16,627 nt of DNA from a virus. Below the pieces are notes generated by a model. It had not been told where the DNA came from, ran no database searches, and was given only the letters and a program-made list of their open reading frames with translations. The stretch lies in the UHGV virus genome UHGV-1794905; one strand, given 5' to 3'. Below are positions 9,285-16,215 of this stretch, piece by piece. The position numbers and the translations under genes are program-made. Numbering within the stretch: the first letter of the stretch is position 1; each line of letters begins with the position of its first letter.

Positions 9285-11348
9285 TTACGCCGTACATTTC
9301 ACCAGACCGCGGTGATCAACTGGCGCGACACCAGCGTCAATACGCACTTTCGTTGTCACGCCGTCCACGCTGAAGCCCTCCATCTGATCAATATATGGCG
9401 TATCCACACCGTTGAGATAAGCCACTTCGATGGTATCCGTACCTTTCGCCGCAGCCAGATAAAAGGTGGTCTGGCTGTTATCATCAAGACGAGGCTCTGC
9501 AATAACGGTCGCAAAATCTTTCACCGGGTTAATAATACCGGCGTTAATGTCAGCCCCCTTGACACTTGAGGAGCGAATGACCTGGTTAGCAACAGACTCC
9601 ATCGCTGTCGGTACCAGTACGAACGCAGGACGAATATTCAGATGACGCTCCCCCTCTTTCTGAACGCGCATCAACTGGCGAGCTTTATCCAGTGATGCCA
9701 CGTCCATTGCAGCGTTCTCCAGTACGTTTGCATGTTTCGTTTTATCGAACAGGTTCACATTATCCGTGGAGATCTTCGGATTAGACGTCAGAATGGCATA
9801 AACCAGATCGGCAATCGTGGATTTTGCCGCACGCCCCAGTTTCATCGGAACATCGGTCAGCATATTCAGATCATCGTTGATAATGGCCTGACGGGTGATG
9901 CTGAACAGTTCACCATAAGTCGCCAGTGCAATCGTGGCCTGTTTATCTCCGGTGGTGACGTACTTATATTCCGCCCCTTCTCGCACCTGACGCAGAGAAC
10001 TGAAGCCCCCCATCCCCACACGATGAGCAATTTTAAAATCAGACAGCTGACCTTTCCGGGTCCACTGTTCGTAAGTCTCAGGGGCTTCTTCCCATCCCTG
10101 CAGAATGGCTTTGTTCGCGACATCCAGCAGAATATTACCAAAATCAGACGTACTGTGCGTGAACGCTGCCCCGACCATCTGCATTGGGTTATACCCGGAA
10201 ACCCCAATCCCCCGTTCTGTCAGTGACATTCGGGCATATTCACGCAGGGTCATCCCGTTATAGACGTTATCCTGTTCACGCTCAGCAAATCCGGCACGCG
10301 CCATCAGCGCCTGACGGATCCCGTCCCCCACAAAATTACCGTTGCCAGCATAAATATGGGCCGGGGTATTTTTATTTGATGGTGAAAATTCCTTACCCAT
10401 TTCGTTAAGTAATTTCTCACGGGCCTGCTCAAGCGAGCACTCCGGATCGGAAAGACAACTGGCCTGCAATGTCTGATAGCGCCCGCCAAACATACCAAAC
10501 AGTTCATTAATACCACTCACACGTGCTTTTTGCTCTGCCAGTACCTGCGCACGGATACTGCTTTCATCTGCGGAAGGTGCATTTGTGGTAGTCGCGGTTG
10601 TGGCAACCGGAGCCGTAGTAGTCTTATCCTGTGTCTGAGATGCAGTATTTTTGTTTTCAGGTTCACGCGTTGCACTGTTGCGTGGCGGAATAATCATATT
10701 TCGAATGGATTCCGGCATTTTTTTAAATTCCTCTGTACGTTTTGACTGAATACATGCCATTGCCTTAACTTCCGGTGTCACCTGGTCAGCAAATCCGTGT
10801 GCCAGACATTCGGCACCGGACATCCAGGTTTCATCCGCCAGCATGGCAGCAATTTCATCGGTGGTTTTCCCGGTTTTCTGCGCATAAGCAGGCAACAGGA
10901 CCGACTCAACTTTATCAAGCAGGTCAGCATAATCACGCATATCATCCGCATCGCCACCACTCACTCCCCATGGTTTATGGATCATCATGAATGCGTTTTC
11001 CGGCATGATGACGGGATCACCCACCATTGCAATGACCGATGCCATGGATGCCGCGACACCATCCACATAAACAGTGATGGACGCCCCATGATTTTTCAGC
11101 GCATTAAAAATGGCGATGCCTTCAAAGACATCGCCACCCGGTGAATTGATATGGAGATTAATGTGGGTGATATTACCCAGCGCATTCAGATCGCTGACAA
11201 ACTGCTTCGCCGTAACTCCCCAGAAACCAATCTCGTCATAGATATAAATATCTGCGTCACTTTTATGACCCGCCTTCATTCTGAACCAGGAATTATTCTT
11301 CAGGCTGGCCTTCGGTTCGCCGCGAAACCACGCGTTCTGTTTCAGCAT
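9285..11348 (-). CDS. Prohead protease (ClpP-like, S14) fused to HK97-fold major capsid protein, 687 aa
   Basis: N-terminal region carries ClpP signature motifs (…GVAASMASVIAMVGD… catalytic Ser; …MMIHKPWGVSGG… catalytic His). A T/A/P-rich low-complexity linker (TASQTQDKTTTAPVATTATTTNAPSADESS) follows, then about 380 aa of capsid-like sequence. Start at ATG 11348 with AAGGAGGTGGTA; the ORF-track start at 11540 is read-through of the portal 3' end. Confidence 0.8.
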   Translation of the reverse strand: MLKQNAWFRGEPKASLKNNSWFRMKAGHKSDADIYIYDEIGFWGVTAKQFVSDLNALGNITHINLHINSPGGDVFEGIAIFNALKNHGASITVYVDGVAASMASVIAMVGDPVIMPENAFMMIHKPWGVSGGDADDMRDYADLLDKVESVLLPAYAQKTGKTTDEIAAMLADETWMSGAECLAHGFADQVTPEVKAMACIQSKRTEEFKKMPESIRNMIIPPRNSATREPENKNTASQTQDKTTTAPVATTATTTNAPSADESSIRAQVLAEQKARVSGINELFGMFGGRYQTLQASCLSDPECSLEQAREKLLNEMGKEFSPSNKNTPAHIYAGNGNFVGDGIRQALMARAGFAEREQDNVYNGMTLREYARMSLTERGIGVSGYNPMQMVGAAFTHSTSDFGNILLDVANKAILQGWEEAPETYEQWTRKGQLSDFKIAHRVGMGGFSSLRQVREGAEYKYVTTGDKQATIALATYGELFSITRQAIINDDLNMLTDVPMKLGRAAKSTIADLVYAILTSNPKISTDNVNLFDKTKHANVLENAAMDVASLDKARQLMRVQKEGERHLNIRPAFVLVPTAMESVANQVIRSSSVKGADINAGIINPVKDFATVIAEPRLDDNSQTTFYLAAAKGTDTIEVAYLNGVDTPYIDQMEGFSVDGVTTKVRIDAGVAPVDHRGLVKCTA

Positions 11349-12798
11349 TACCACCTCCTTTATCGCAGGCCGGATCGGTATCAAACACCAGATCCAGCCT
11401 GCGGTTTTCATCAATTTCGGCCTTGCGCCGACGTTTAACATCATCCGGATTACGACCACTGGCGCGCACCCAGTCTGATTCTGTTGCCGCACCACCACGA
11501 ATCTGGATTTTCCAGGCTTCAGCTTCCTTGACAGGATCAATCCACGGCATGACCGGACCAGAATATGTTGCGTTATATAATGTTTTTATATCCACATCCG
11601 ACGGAATTTTCAGCACCCCCGCGGCAACCACCATATTCAGCCATGCCCGGTACACCGGACGGGTTACAGCACCAATAAAACAGTCCTGCAGGATCAGATA
11701 GCCATCGGTGGACTCAACCAGCTCCTGTCGCTGGGAACTGTAGGTACCGTTATAGTTACGTGCTGCACTGGAAAAACTCAGACGAGTGCCCGCCGCCATG
11801 GCCCGCAACTGACCATTACGAAAAGTTTCCAGATTAGGGTTAGGCCGATCAGATTTGACCATGCCAATATCTTCCCCCTTACGCAGATCGTCATAAATAA
11901 TGCCGGGAGTGATATGCAGTTCCCGATCATTATCTTTATTCGTCACAGGTTCCTCATAATCCTGCCCGTCTCCTTTACGAATATACAGCCCCAGTGCCGC
12001 AGCAATGCGCGCCGCTACCAGCTCAGCATCTTCATATTCCTTAAGCGCACTGATCCGTATCAGCACACCTGACAACATGGATGTGCCACGCGTCTGATGA
12101 AGGCGGCGGGTAAACTTCAGATGCACCATATTTTCAGCGGCGATCTCTTTGGTTTCACTCTGTCGCCCGGTAACCGGATAATTTTTATAAACCAGGTATT
12201 TTTTCGGCCTGCCCCATTCATCCAGAAAAACCCCCTGATTCATTCCCGCAGACTCATCACTGAGCATGGGCACAAAATCCGGCTCCATTGCCTCGAGCCA
12301 GAAAGGCACACCGGCAGTCCGCGCCAGCCCGGCACCTGCGCCTCTGACCATCTGGGCAAACACTTCTCCATCACGTAACCAGGTACGCAACAGCAGACGT
12401 TCGAGCATGGGGCGCGTATGCTGCCCGGTCACATCCGGACTGACAGACCATTCCGCCCACAAACGACGGATAATAATTGCCAGCTCTGTAGCCATATCAC
12501 CATTTTTCAGTAATGGTTGTGGTTCAACAATGATCCCCTTTGCACCAATCACCCGCTCCTCAAGTTTGTCGAAAACACCGATTACCAGGTCATGATTAAT
12601 GTCCAGAAAACGGGCCTGTTCCCGCAGGGAAACCGCCCCGTACTTACTGAGCTGGTCGGCAGAACGGTTTTCCCGTCGAGCTTTGTGTGTGCGGGTGGGT
12701 TTCACGGCCTCATAAGCGCGGATTAACGCTCTTGATCGCAACCTCGCAGCTTTCCAGCCGGGAGAAAAAACACCAATCACATCATCAAGAATTGCCAT
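11293..12798 (-). CDS. Portal protein
   Basis: 501-aa ORF between the W-like gene and the protease/capsid gene, with an acidic C-terminus. The ATG shares a base with the W stop. Not similar to lambda gpB by recall. Call rests on size and position. Confidence 0.8.
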   Translation of the reverse strand: MAILDDVIGVFSPGWKAARLRSRALIRAYEAVKPTRTHKARRENRSADQLSKYGAVSLREQARFLDINHDLVIGVFDKLEERVIGAKGIIVEPQPLLKNGDMATELAIIIRRLWAEWSVSPDVTGQHTRPMLERLLLRTWLRDGEVFAQMVRGAGAGLARTAGVPFWLEAMEPDFVPMLSDESAGMNQGVFLDEWGRPKKYLVYKNYPVTGRQSETKEIAAENMVHLKFTRRLHQTRGTSMLSGVLIRISALKEYEDAELVAARIAAALGLYIRKGDGQDYEEPVTNKDNDRELHITPGIIYDDLRKGEDIGMVKSDRPNPNLETFRNGQLRAMAAGTRLSFSSAARNYNGTYSSQRQELVESTDGYLILQDCFIGAVTRPVYRAWLNMVVAAGVLKIPSDVDIKTLYNATYSGPVMPWIDPVKEAEAWKIQIRGGAATESDWVRASGRNPDDVKRRRKAEIDENRRLDLVFDTDPACDKGGGNAETERVVSRRTEGQPEE

Positions 12799-13010
12799 CA
12801 GAACCTCGCCAGTTTATACCCTGGATTTCCCCGTCGCCGCGCGGTCAGAGCTACAAGGCGGCGCTCCCACTCCTGCCGCCCCTGCCGGATCTCAGATAAA
12901 TTTTCCATGGTCATCTGCTGACCATTAAAGGTGACGGATTTTCCGTCCAGCACAGCCATTTCCGCATCAATATAACGCTGGATCATGGCTTCAATATCAT
13001 TCTGATTCAT
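12798..13010 (-). CDS. W: Head-tail joining protein, gpW-like
   Basis: 70 aa from ATG 13010 (ATGA coupling with the terminase stop; GGAGG 6 nt upstream). Size and position between terminase and portal match lambda W. Confidence 0.7.
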   Translation of the reverse strand: MNQNDIEAMIQRYIDAEMAVLDGKSVTFNGQQMTMENLSEIRQGRQEWERRLVALTARRRGNPGYKLARF

Positions 13011-15106
13011 AACCATCCTCCGGATGTCACCCAGGGGTTATCCTCATCGGGTGCCATTTTTTTTCGTTTCTTTTTTCTGGCCGGGGGACGTTCCGGCTCC
13101 GGCAGAACAGGTGGCTCCGCGTTGTCACTGACACACTCCAGCCAGGTTTCCCGGTACGCCCACTCCGGCGCATCAGGCCACTGAATTTTCTCGTACCCAT
13201 GCAGAATGACCAGCGCCTCGGCATACACCATCAGGTCAAAGGCTTCGTTCGCACCGCGCCCCGGCTTACTCCATTTCCCGTCACTGCTCCGCTCTTCATA
13301 CGTCAGTTCGTCGTAAAACCAACTCCCCAGCCAGTCGGGAAAATGCACATAGCCAGGACCGGGAGAATCACGCCATAACGCGTTATTCACCCGGTCTTTC
13401 AGAACGTCAGTCTGAAGAAGCCAGAGAGGCACATCACCCGCAGCCTGCGCCCGTCGCCCCGTTCGTCCGGTGTTATCCGGAAATGTACGGGTTATCAGTT
13501 TTGCACGTCGGATACTGTCGCCCTTAAACAGGTAAATACGCTTGCCAAGACCATCAAGACGGCAACGACGCCAGAATTTATAGGCATTATCGGTAACCCC
13601 GTCTTCACCGCCGGAGTCCACCGCCATTGCCATTACCCGCATGCGCTGAGAAGAGTCAGAAACCAGCGGCCAGCCTTTATGAAAAACATCCGTCAGCAGA
13701 ACATCCCAGTCTTCCGGATAACCGGCGGGATCAATACGCAGGCTTTCTCCGTTATTGTCACAACGCAGCGACTGCGTGATGTTGTAACGATCAACTATCC
13801 AGCGCTCGCCGCGACTACCATAGCCCGTTACCTGAACCACAAAACGGCGATGGCGTCCCGCCTGCACATCCACTGTCGCTACAAGGAAATTTACGCCATC
13901 CGGCACACTGCGGGGAGGAACTGGCTCTGCACGTTGCTCAAGCAGTTCGCTTTTTCGTTGCTCCATGCTGGCGCGGGGAAGATAAGGTAACCCCCAGTCA
14001 GTATTGATAACCGCCTTGAGAGTTTCTTCGCTTCCGGTTGCCTCGTATTCCTGTTCAGCGGTCAACAACTTATAAATCAGTTGCGCCCAGGTCTGATAAG
14101 CGGCAGCGGGTCCCTCCATCCAGAAGCTGGCTATCCTTGATTGACGTGGCATTCCGGTAACATTCCCTTCCATGTCAATCTGCTCACCATCCCGTAACCA
14201 GACCCCGCGCCCGTTCAACTCACGTTTCATGTCTGCGGTGATTCTGGAGCCACAATGAGGACATAATATATGGGCCGCTTTACTGGCTTTTACAGGATCG
14301 GGATTGTCACGGTACCCCGTCATGGCCTCCATGGAGGGTTGAAAATACCCCCCGCAATCCGGACAGGGCCAGTACCAGCGACGACGATCACCACGGTTAT
14401 AAAGTGACAGGATCCCCGTGGTGGGTGGAGCTTCATGTGGAGAGGTTTTTCGCCACTTACTGTCCGAAATTTCGCGTCCAGGTGAACTCTCCACAAGAGT
14501 CATACCTGCTGACATAAACGTCGTGGTACGTTTTGAAGCCAGGGAGAAACCATCACCTTCACCATCAATATCATCAGGCCAGCGGTCATAATCTGTTAAG
14601 GCAACAAATCTATAATCAGATGACGACATAATATTGACTGAGGGCCAACCAATCTTTAGATAATTACCCGCCTTAAAAGTCTTATCATGAACGTTGTTAT
14701 CATTGGTTCGTGGACTCATTCGCCGTGCGACTTCTTTACTGACCCGAAATGTGCGATCAAGACGTTTTCTGGAATGCTCTCTTGCTTTCTCTTCTGTCAT
14801 TTGAATTAACAAAAAATCTGCAGGCTCACAAACCACGCTGTATACAATCCAGCCATCAATTAACCCAACCGTTTTTCCTGTTCGTGCTGGCCCGACAAAA
14901 ACAACCGCATCATAGTCACGGGAAGACAAGCAATTCATTGGCTCAATGATATAAGGCGTCAAAGATGCATCCCATGGCAATGAACTTCCCCCGCCCAGTG
15001 GTACTCGCATATATTTCTCAACCGCTTCTGCCACTGGCATTCTTGTGGGGGGTTTTAGCAATTCGGAAACATCACGCCTGATAGCACTTGCTGAGGCAAA
15101 AACCAT
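13007..15106 (-). CDS. Terminase large subunit (lambda gpA family), 699 aa
   Basis: Walker A-like VFVGPARTGKT near the N-terminus; Cys-rich WYWPCPDCGG...HILCPHCG segment; ATG overlaps the small-subunit stop (TAATG). C-terminus is basic (ARKKKRKK). Confidence 0.88.
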   Translation of the reverse strand: MVFASASAIRRDVSELLKPPTRMPVAEAVEKYMRVPLGGGSSLPWDASLTPYIIEPMNCLSSRDYDAVVFVGPARTGKTVGLIDGWIVYSVVCEPADFLLIQMTEEKAREHSRKRLDRTFRVSKEVARRMSPRTNDNNVHDKTFKAGNYLKIGWPSVNIMSSSDYRFVALTDYDRWPDDIDGEGDGFSLASKRTTTFMSAGMTLVESSPGREISDSKWRKTSPHEAPPTTGILSLYNRGDRRRWYWPCPDCGGYFQPSMEAMTGYRDNPDPVKASKAAHILCPHCGSRITADMKRELNGRGVWLRDGEQIDMEGNVTGMPRQSRIASFWMEGPAAAYQTWAQLIYKLLTAEQEYEATGSEETLKAVINTDWGLPYLPRASMEQRKSELLEQRAEPVPPRSVPDGVNFLVATVDVQAGRHRRFVVQVTGYGSRGERWIVDRYNITQSLRCDNNGESLRIDPAGYPEDWDVLLTDVFHKGWPLVSDSSQRMRVMAMAVDSGGEDGVTDNAYKFWRRCRLDGLGKRIYLFKGDSIRRAKLITRTFPDNTGRTGRRAQAAGDVPLWLLQTDVLKDRVNNALWRDSPGPGYVHFPDWLGSWFYDELTYEERSSDGKWSKPGRGANEAFDLMVYAEALVILHGYEKIQWPDAPEWAYRETWLECVSDNAEPPVLPEPERPPARKKKRKKMAPDEDNPWVTSGGWL

Positions 15107-15606
15107 TATTCCTCCTCATCATCTCTTTCTCTCATTTCAGTTGATAATGCCTCACGGATATCATCAACTGCTCGTTGAGCCTCAGCGATTTGTGATGCAT
15201 TCCAGCCCCGATCTCGCTCCAGTTTGTCAGGCCACGTATCCAGTACCTGAGTAACAACCTTCAACATCAACGCCATTTCGCGATGCACGTCACTGGCAGG
15301 AACAAGTTGTTTTAATGTTGTTTCCATCTTGATACGTTCGTTTTCTGACTGGAACCAGTCTTTACGCTCTTTCGGTTCCATTCGTGACGGATCATGTATA
15401 TCGGAATCAATGACTGATTTACTCTCAAACAAAGCAGGTCCGACATCTCTCAATGCATAAACAGGATTACCACGAACGGTGCCGGCAACAGGGATATTGG
15501 CCTCCAGCAGTCTTTTTTTAACCACCTTTCTGTCCATAGCAAAGGCTTCTGCGATTTTCGCGATACTCCAGCGATAAACGTCTCCGATATTACTGATATT
15601 CGACAT
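15106..15606 (-). CDS. Terminase small subunit (Nu1-like DNA-recognition subunit)
   Basis: 166 aa from ATG 15606 (GAGGTGGGG upstream); N-terminal helix-turn-helix-like segment (DVYRWSIAKIAEAFAMDRKVVKKRL), acidic C-terminus, immediately upstream of and coupled to the large subunit. The ORF-track start at 15612 is a GTG. Confidence 0.8.
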   Translation of the reverse strand: MSNISNIGDVYRWSIAKIAEAFAMDRKVVKKRLLEANIPVAGTVRGNPVYALRDVGPALFESKSVIDSDIHDPSRMEPKERKDWFQSENERIKMETTLKQLVPASDVHREMALMLKVVTQVLDTWPDKLERDRGWNASQIAEAQRAVDDIREALSTEMRERDDEEE

Positions 15607-15789
15607 CCCCACCTCTTCACACCAGCTCGAATATCATTTTTCTTTTTAAAAACAGAATATTAAAAACTGGTCAGATGTCCCACAAAAAGCAAAATTGGAC
15701 AGGTGAAAATCAATTTTTATTTTACTTTTCAACATGTTAATTGATGTGGTGGTGTCCCATGAAAATTCAAAAACTAGCCGTTTTCCGCG

Positions 15790-15801
15790 CCGCTCCCGCC
15801 C
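15790..15801 (-). other. Candidate cosN cohesive-end site
   Basis: Minus strand reads ACG-GGGCGGGAGCGG-CGCGGAAAACGGCTAGTTTTTGAATTTTC, which aligns with my recollection of the lambda cos region (ACG-GGGCGGCGACCT-CGCGGGTTTTCGCTATTTATGAAAATTTTC). It is a GC island in an AT-rich gap about 185 nt upstream of the small terminase start. Confidence 0.5.
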
Positions 15802-15915
15802 CGTGGCAAGGGTACCCCACCGGGAGGACCCGCAAAATGAGAGCGATTATCATTTGTACACACTCTAACACCTGCATTATCGCAGCTCCTCGCTGAAGGG
15901 CTGCTGTAATGCATG

Positions 15916-16215
15916 TTACTCAGTAACAACTGCGCCTTCCGGTAATTCCATACCGGCAAATACCGGACAACCAGGATGACGATCATCTTCTGTTGCTTCC
16001 AGCATTGACTCACCAAACCACTCCGTCGTGGCGCGACCATCAGCAGCTTTGTAGTGGAGTAAGTACTGGTTTTCGCCATCCGCATACTGCGCGCGGGCTT
16101 TAACCTCACCCCATTCATCACTGATGCGCATCTCCACCAGTTGAGACAACTCAAACTTAAACGGGACAGCAGCGGCACCAATTACAATCGGTTTGTTTTC
16201 TGTTGTTTCCATCAT
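15916..16215 (-). CDS. Hypothetical acidic protein, 99 aa
   Basis: ATGATG at 16215 with AGGAG 5 nt upstream; MMETTENKPIVIGAAAVPFKFELSQL..., no transmembrane segment, acidic. Lies on the operon strand upstream of cos. No family recognised. Confidence 0.55.
   Translation of the reverse strand: MMETTENKPIVIGAAAVPFKFELSQLVEMRISDEWGEVKARAQYADGENQYLLHYKAADGRATTEWFGESMLEATEDDRHPGCPVFAGMELPEGAVVTE

Follow-up and report, generated by a model that had tools for sequence, protein, structure and literature searches.

The stretch of DNA considered here, 16,627 nucleotides (nt) of the virus genome UHGV-1794905 (hereafter the window), is part of a prophage and reaches from a presumptive cohesive-end site (cos), by way of the head genes, into those of the tail. 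On its minus strand the genes for the small and the large terminase subunits (terS and terL, encoding TerS and TerL) are preceded by an AT-rich stretch and, beyond it, by a short island in which the guanine plus cytosine (GC) content is 0.70 (15780..15839), as against 0.25-0.33 over 15630..15779. We propose that this island holds the core of a lambda-type cos and that the window belongs to a lambdoid prophage with head genes of the cdtI / mEp460 / Gifsy-2 type; on the sequence comparisons set out below, we put the probability of this reading, with its predicted 12-nt overhangs, at about 0.85. The features of the region are collected in Table 1, in which base pairs (bp) are numbered along the minus strand from the first base of the predicted overhang (bp 1); the nick positions and the overhang length are those that we infer.

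Table 1. Features of the putative cos region and of the genes next to it (ORF, open reading frame; aa, amino acids)
Feature	Position in the window	Strand	bp	Remarks
cosQ-like heptamer GGGTCCT	15825..15831	-	-30..-24	identical to lambda cosQ, same distance from cosN
cosQ-cosN spacer	15804..15824
cosN core CG-GGGCGGGAGCGG-CG	15788..15803	-		predicted 12-nt 5' overhang 15790..15801
Predicted minus-strand nick	15802/15801	-
Predicted plus-strand nick	15789/15790	+
I2-like segment CGCGGAAAACGGCTAGTTTTTGAATTTTCATG	15758..15789	-	13-44	partly alignable to lambda bp 13-44
Site A TGGGACACCACCA	15747..15759	-	43-55	direct; core GGGACACCACC at bp 45; position of lambda R3
IHF-like site TAACATGTTGAAA	15727..15739	-	63-75	direct; one mismatch to YAANNNNTTGATW
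Site B ATTGGACAGGTGA (plus-strand reading)	15694..15706	+	96-108	inverted relative to A and C; core GGACAGGTG at bp 101
Site C TGGGACATCTGAC	15670..15682	-	120-132	direct, oriented like A; core GGGACATCTGACC at bp 122
Weaker IHF-like stretch	15649..15662			precedes site D
Candidate site D TTCACACCAGCTC (plus-strand reading)	15616..15628	+	174-186	degenerate inverted copy
terS	15106..15606	-		ATG at 15606 (bp 196); 166 aa; DUF1441 / phrog_141
terL	13007..15106	-		699 aa; gpA family, GpA_ATPase + GpA_nuclease
Ad1-type adaptor	13016..12798	-
Lambda-family portal	12798..11293	-
ClpP-protease/capsid fusion	9285..11540	-		single ORF, 751 aa from the first TTG
ORF of 115 aa	15916..16263	-		phrog_1935, function unknown
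ORF of 60 aa	16387..16569	-		phrog_7528

Resemblance of the core to the cos of lambda

A sequence-only reading of this stretch had placed ACG-GGGCGGGAGCGG-CGCGG on the minus strand, in a GC island about 185 nt upstream of terS, and had aligned it with the lambda cohesive-end region. The motif is found as quoted (minus strand, 15803..15785), 183 nt separate the overhang from the terS start codon, and the lambda sequence given there agrees with the lambda record (NC_001416), which ends in ...GGTTACG and starts with GGGCGGCGACCTCGCGG. The exact pattern ACGGGGCGGN6CGCGG has a single occurrence in the window, where the chance expectation of the cosN pattern, even with two or fewer mismatches, is 0.23. 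When an 85-nt segment of lambda cos (-35 to +50) was slid without gaps along both strands of the window, the best placement (15752..15836, minus strand) gave 46 identities in 85 positions (z = 6.0). These include three blocks at lambda's own spacing, namely eight nt at cosQ (CGGGTCCT), the nine nt ACGGGGCGG and the five nt CGCGG, and a weaker identity carries on across bp 13-44. The runners-up, with 42 and 40 identities, have these scattered and lack the blocks; a partial match to the cosN pattern at 12622..12641 lies within the portal gene, likewise with scattered identities, and was set aside as due to chance.

What the window has in common with lambda comprises the cosQ heptamer and its distance, the ACG flank, bp 1-6 of the overhang, the CGCGG, a 12-bp interval between the CG dinucleotides that flank both predicted nicks, and a TerL of the gpA family. 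The overhang itself was expected to depart from that of lambda at several positions, and it does so at five of the 12 (bp 7, 8, 9, 11 and 12), the other seven being identical. This exceeds the differences cited for two members of the lambda-like cos group defined by Feiss (lambda, 434, phi80, 21, N15, Monarch and Gifsy-1): N15 departs from lambda at two positions (bp 9 and 12) and Gifsy-1 at three (bp 8, 9 and 11) (PMC4669245).

The conservation of the site was profiled in 18 loci from more than 10 genera, including Trabulsiella, Pantoea, Erwinia, Citrobacter, Providencia, Morganella, Rahnella, Rosenbergiella, Rouxiella and Scandinavium, which were chosen solely by the similarity of their TerS proteins. 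In all 18, as in the larger set of 20 DUF1441 loci, a cosN-like block lies 193-206 nt 5' of the terS ATG, near the distance in lambda, where Nu1 starts at bp 191. The information content, 0.33 bits per position over bp -60 to -36, is moderate at cosQ (1.12), amounts to 1.62 over bp -5 to -1 and to 1.50 over the left half of the overhang (bp 1-6), drops to 0.74 over its variable right half (bp 7-12), and reaches 1.68 over bp 13-33, with the CG flanks scoring 1.6-1.7 bits. No other non-coding block is conserved as strongly across genera as the I2-like segment (1.3-1.7 bits per position), which occurs also in the mEp460-type phages, whose TerS is different but whose TerL is of the same clade. In lambda-like cosN sites natural variation is found at bp 7-12, with conservation of cosQ, of the CG flanks and of the left half (PMC4669245), and the same asymmetry in the 18-locus profile supports a lambda-like cosN. 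By the sequence definition of Feiss, the site is a lambda-like cos in every sequence-level respect.

The right half of the overhang was surveyed in viral contigs with a search pattern that fixed bp 1-6, and the counts in this and the next paragraph are those among the matches listed. The 125 cosQ-cosN matches carry at least 11 right-half alleles: CGACCT, which is lambda's, in 68; GAGCGT in 23; CGCGCT in 10; GAGCGG, which is the window's, in 5; and seven further alleles in 19 together. Wherever the terminase genes could be typed, CGACCT was paired only with those of lambda type, and the non-lambda right halves were mostly paired with a TerL of the window's type.

Variation is found even among contigs with a 100% identical TerL (L155-L160), in which bp 12 (window 15790) is G or T and the spacer between cosQ and cosN is 19 or 20 nt long; two of them (L157 and L160) agree with the window in 294-295 of 297 positions at cos, yet carry GAGCGT. 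At bp 12, which adjoins the predicted bottom-strand nick, T is some four to five times commoner than G (T:G = 100:23 at 123 viral-contig sites and 105:19 at 124 metagenome sites). Partial matches to the 361-bp region as a whole, with a coverage of at most 76%, occur in 247 complete Escherichia coli genomes of RefSeq.

Natural variation of cosQ was described as "not apparent" by Feiss in 2015 (PMC4669245). In ten of the loci collected here (L139, L140, L145-L148, L150, L152, L153 and L135), which come from Providencia, Morganella, Rahnella, Citrobacter, Trabulsiella and Scandinavium, AGGTACT stands in place of GGGTCCT at bp -30 to -24.

The putative cosB region

A cosB with an IHF-binding region would be expected in the AT-rich stretch between the core and terS, as the sequence-only reading had supposed, and a comparison across loci bears this out. 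Three sites (A, B and C), a candidate fourth (D, the weakest of the four) and IHF-like stretches can be recognized (Table 1), and the sites keep their positions in 20 genome and phage loci as well as in 76 viral contigs. Site A occupies bp 45/46 in every locus; its core is GGACA in the window and TGTCA, CGACA or another sequence in the loci of other TerS classes. In 15 of the 20 loci bp 63/64 holds an IHF-like match, always in the same orientation and with one mismatch or none; seven of these matches are perfect. The position of site B (bp 101/102) holds an inverted class-specific core in class A and class B loci, and that of site C (bp 122/123) a direct one across loci. At the position of site D, AGCTGGTGTG is kept in all class A loci and CACCTGACAG, with an inverted TGTCA core, in class B.

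All the sites of one locus switch their core together, and in doing so track residues 25-27 of TerS, a protein that belongs to the DUF1441 family (Pfam PF07278, E = 2.4e-44; PHROG 141, "terminase small subunit", E = 2.8e-54), whereas lambda has a Nu1 TerS. The core GGACA accompanies D25-R26-K27 in the window, five genome loci and 11 viral contigs; TGTCA accompanies N-R-G in nine genome loci and 62 viral contigs; CGACA accompanies N-R-S in two viral contigs; and a further core class goes with the H-R-D of the cdtI type. That three or four dispersed sites change in concert argues for one protein that binds them all.

The succession of a direct site, an IHF site, an inverted site and a direct site is the layout of lambda's R3-I1-R2-R1, in which R3 occupies bp 50-65 and R2 points the opposite way to R3 and R1 (PMC9026076); the sequences of the sites, in contrast, are unrelated to the lambda R sites. 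A possible fourth, inverted site and a second IHF-like stretch suggest two tandem site-IHF-site units and not a simple R3-I1-R2-R1. The whole is best described as a lambda-like cosQ-cosN-I2 core joined to a DUF1441-specific cosB. We would give even odds to the further proposal that the region from cosN to terS constitutes an undescribed DUF1441 packaging-recognition system, with two tandem units, each pairing a direct with an inverted site across an IHF bend, and at least four specificity classes that track three residues of TerS. The searchable literature yielded no description of the DUF1441 cosB organization or of its apparent specificity classes, and these may be the only part of the finding that is new; for the rest, it extends a known family and leaves the current understanding unchanged.

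DNA ends in the relatives and competing explanations

A comparison with the cos regions of related phages, which had been proposed together with the alignment to lambda, singles out the same 12 nt. The records of cdtI (AB285204) and Tritos (OV696610) start with GGGCGGGAGCGT CGCGGAAAAAGGCTAG and end with ...CCTGCCACG (...CCACG), so that their first base is homologous to position 15801 of the window. The record of LLS (PQ299149) annotates bp 1-12 (GGGCGGCGCGCT) at the homologous position as a 5'-extended cohesive site, and that of the Hafnia phage yong2 was cut open at the opposite edge of these 12 nt. We take the record starts of cdtI, Tritos and LLS as supportive and not as experimental proof. 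The record of mEp460 (JQ182728) contains the identical 12-mer GGGCGGGAGCGG in its interior; the overhang allele of the window is thus already in GenBank, and its G-to-T neighbour is what starts the cdtI and Tritos records. A search of the full-text literature found no phage paper with GGGCGGGAGCGG, its bp-12 T form or their complements; the papers that did match concern G-quadruplexes and other unrelated subjects.

One independent hint comes from a viral contig of metagenomic origin, IMGVR_UViG_3300038809_000004 (L184), in which a related cos, with another right-half allele and the CGCGG flank, is followed by a DUF1441 terS that starts at bp 196. The contig begins exactly at bp 1 (GGGCGGCGGACT/CGCGGAAAACGG...), which is consistent with a physical DNA end there. 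In the wider TerL family, the members with mapped ends (Chi, Cr-LKS3 and lambda) all have 5' cohesive ends, those of Chi being of 12 nt as determined by primer extension (PMC4342425) and those of Cr-LKS3 of 9 nt with lambda-like flanks (PMC9303873). A virome assembly, LR595868 (mEp460_4F5; L007 1..30 and the end of L008), has its opening 5 nt on the upstream side of the predicted nick, and 3 nt are missing from within the overhang (GGGCGGGAGCG-CGG); the pattern looks like an assembly artefact from reads that end at cohesive ends.

Relative to that of the window, TerL is 84% identical in cdtI and Tritos, 82% in mEp460 and Ayreon, 77% in mEp213 and LLS, 71% in VT1-Sakai, 69% in Gifsy-2, 43% in Cr-LKS3 and 41% in Chi. 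The first two share with the window both the cosQ-cosN-I2 block and a DUF1441 TerS; they have T at overhang base 12, a spacer of 19 nt between cosQ and the ACG as against 20 here, and another cosB/TerS class (H-R-D). mEp460 shares the block, but has a TerS of an unrelated family and a different cosB. LLS and mEp213 have the same Gifsy-2-like head organization with a fused protease-capsid gene, a TerS of a different family and the overhang allele GGGCGGCGCGCT. In Chi the overhang (GGTGCGCAGAGC) is unrelated in sequence and more than 10 kb separate cos from the terminase genes; in records of Chi-like phages TerS is annotated as DUF1441. The cyanophage Cr-LKS3 keeps the lambda-like flanks and the first four overhang bases.

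Several observations weigh against our reading. Virion ends are not documented for this phage, nor for relatives whose TerL identity exceeds 50%; the cos of LLS was deduced from the family of its TerL and from an analysis of mEp213 by Feiss, the LLS reads being without ends (PMC12315714). Among the metagenome contigs listed with the window's allele, at least 120, none begins at the nick, and the scan of viral contigs for that allele likewise gave no exact nick start among the at least 120 matches listed; a few contigs in these scans break 8-30 nt upstream of the nick. Since these contigs are probably for the most part integrated prophages, the missing starts are neutral. The TerL and lambda gpA share only 24% identity, and the TerS gives no BLASTP alignment to Nu1; phmmer found no match to it among the sequences of the PDB, and its sole Pfam match is DUF1441, so that by sequence it is not of the Nu1 family. 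The transfer of the mechanism from lambda accordingly depends on the homology of the DNA site and on family membership. When TerS was compared with Nu1 by hhalign, the top alignment had a probability of only 7.7%, and the AlphaFold model made from the single TerS sequence is of low confidence (pLDDT 51). The weak alignment pairs TerS 16-49 with Nu1 6-39, which contains the recognition helix (17-24) and the wing (31-39), and the low-confidence model (pLDDT about 50) has helices at 8-21 and 26-35 and a hairpin at 43-48; if the pairing holds, residues 25-27 would stand at the start of the recognition helix, which is suggestive. The co-variation of these residues with the cosB cores could partly reflect the co-inheritance of adjacent DNA, and for that reason the association between TerS and its sites falls short of proving contact.

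Among the competing explanations, the one that survives best accepts a genuine cos and changes the geometry of its cut, the overhang being shorter or shifted (for example, of 9-10 nt) and not exactly GGGCGGGAGCGG. One relative speaks for it: Cr-LKS3, whose TerL (43%) is closer to the window's than that of lambda (24%), makes the 9-nt 5' overhang GGGCTCGCG, so that within the same broad TerL clade a length of 12 nt is not guaranteed, and no close relative has mapped ends. Nevertheless, the spacing from CG to CG is exactly 12 bp in the window and in all the enterobacterial relatives, the records of cdtI, Tritos, LLS and yong2 delimit the same 12 nt, and Chi, in whose relatives' records a DUF1441-type TerS is annotated, makes 12-nt ends. 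We therefore regard a different cut as improbable.

Slightly less probable again is a cos that is intact in sequence and out of use, a relic in a defective or non-packaging prophage. Many lambdoid prophages of enterobacteria are defective (PMC2669165), and the replication, regulatory and integration genes lie outside the window. Against this, the packaging and head ORFs within the window are all full length and match their families strongly; the identical TerL recurs in at least 74 assembly index blocks, each time with an intact neighbouring module; every subsite of the cos fits the consensus of the relatives; and the same cos core is found in the free-living phages mEp460, Tritos and Ayreon.

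That the GC island is instead a terminator, a promoter or other regulatory element, a small coding gene or a chance match is very improbable indeed: mechanical ORFs do overlap the site (15774..16181 on the minus strand and 15741..15896 on the plus strand), and the mEp460 record annotates a hypothetical coding sequence over the homologous site, but the conservation is of the DNA-site type and not of the codon type, with sharp blocks and six variable positions between invariant CGs, only about 87 bp are common with the mEp460-type phages, inside unrelated flanks, and the exact cosN pattern occurs nowhere else in the window. There is no sign of a regulatory element, since a terminator scan of the site returned no terminator-like sites, its RNA fold has no excess folding energy (z = 0.32), and the two promoter-like matches, with 1.0 expected by chance, are weak and both outside the island; the terminator, promoter and RNA-structure readings were rejected on these grounds.

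Modular structure, neighbouring genes and predicted packaging

The putative cos region is modular. Upstream, homology to the Stx2e phage P27 (96.8% DNA identity over the 115-aa ORF, which corresponds to P27 gene L33) ends at about 15866, some 35 nt before cosQ, and past that point P27 has an unrelated annotated 10-bp cos. The homology to mEp460-type phages is confined to about 15746..15832, that is, to the approximately 87 bp from cosQ through I2; downstream of this block those phages have a TerS of a different family and a different sequence at the position of site A. From these limits it follows that cosQ-cosN-I2 travels with the TerL clade, and the sequence from about bp 43 onward with TerS, a partition that would be expected if cosQ-cosN-I2 were the substrate of the nuclease and of termination and the rest were cosB.

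Two direct cos cores about 2.5 kb apart were seen in one viral contig (IMGVR_UViG_2606217105_000007, 7102..9627; L241), and likewise in L288 and L033. The first has a cosB of the cdtI type, after which there is no terS; next come an ORF of 80 aa and a ClpP-protease/capsid fusion of 638 aa. At the second, cosB and TerS are of the mEp460 type. An SSB-like gene lies upstream. The arrangement may be similar to that of satellites or phage-inducible chromosomal islands (PICI), or may be a duplication of the module.

TerL matches both domains of its family (PF05876, E = 1.8e-75; PF20454, E = 2.9e-85) and is presumably the enzyme that nicks cosN. Contigs with an identical TerL, which are gut-metagenome contigs and one NCBI assembly, have holin and endolysin genes upstream of cos, and in them the protease-capsid fusion is called at 686 aa; the same arrangement of protease and capsid has been described for Gifsy-2-type heads (PMC12315714). 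The two ORFs on the far side of the site, the smaller of which has a signal-peptide, lipobox-like N-terminus (…LVGC…), would sit at the right end of the virion chromosome.

By analogy with lambda, the DUF1441 TerS would bind the three sites A-C, and perhaps D as well, within the AT-rich cosB (15616..15759), aided by an IHF-induced bend at the IHF-like site, and would so position TerL on cosN. Cleavage at the predicted nicks would give virion DNA with 12-nt 5' overhangs, GGGCGGGAGCGG at the left end and its complement CCGCTCCCGCCC at the other. Packaging would then proceed toward decreasing window coordinates, with the terminase genes first, and would stop at the next cos on the concatemer, a step that would require cosN, the I2-like block and cosQ, the heptamer being the likely packaging-termination element. 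The location of the cos fixes the true ends and the gene order of the virion chromosome, and the packaging type that it predicts is the cos type with defined ends. The five differences in the overhang imply that these ends should not pair properly with those of lambda type, which is a reasonable expectation from the sequence, as two of the differing positions adjoin the bottom-strand nick and an overhang mismatch of two bases cost about fourfold in yield (PMC4669245).

Because the cosQ-cosN-I2 block is common to many enterobacterial prophages with different TerS proteins, the cosB/TerS class, and not cosN, should decide which co-resident prophages or satellites this terminase is able to package. 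Such a rule would matter for the dissemination of the toxin and effector genes that cdtI, the Stx phages and other relatives carry. If the proposed recognition system is real, the classes of cosB and TerS would amount to a natural "code" for the recognition of DNA by terminase, would predict which co-resident prophages are able, and which unable, to package each other's DNA, and would be set on a cosQ-cosN-I2 core that has remained lambda-like despite the divergence of TerL to 24%.

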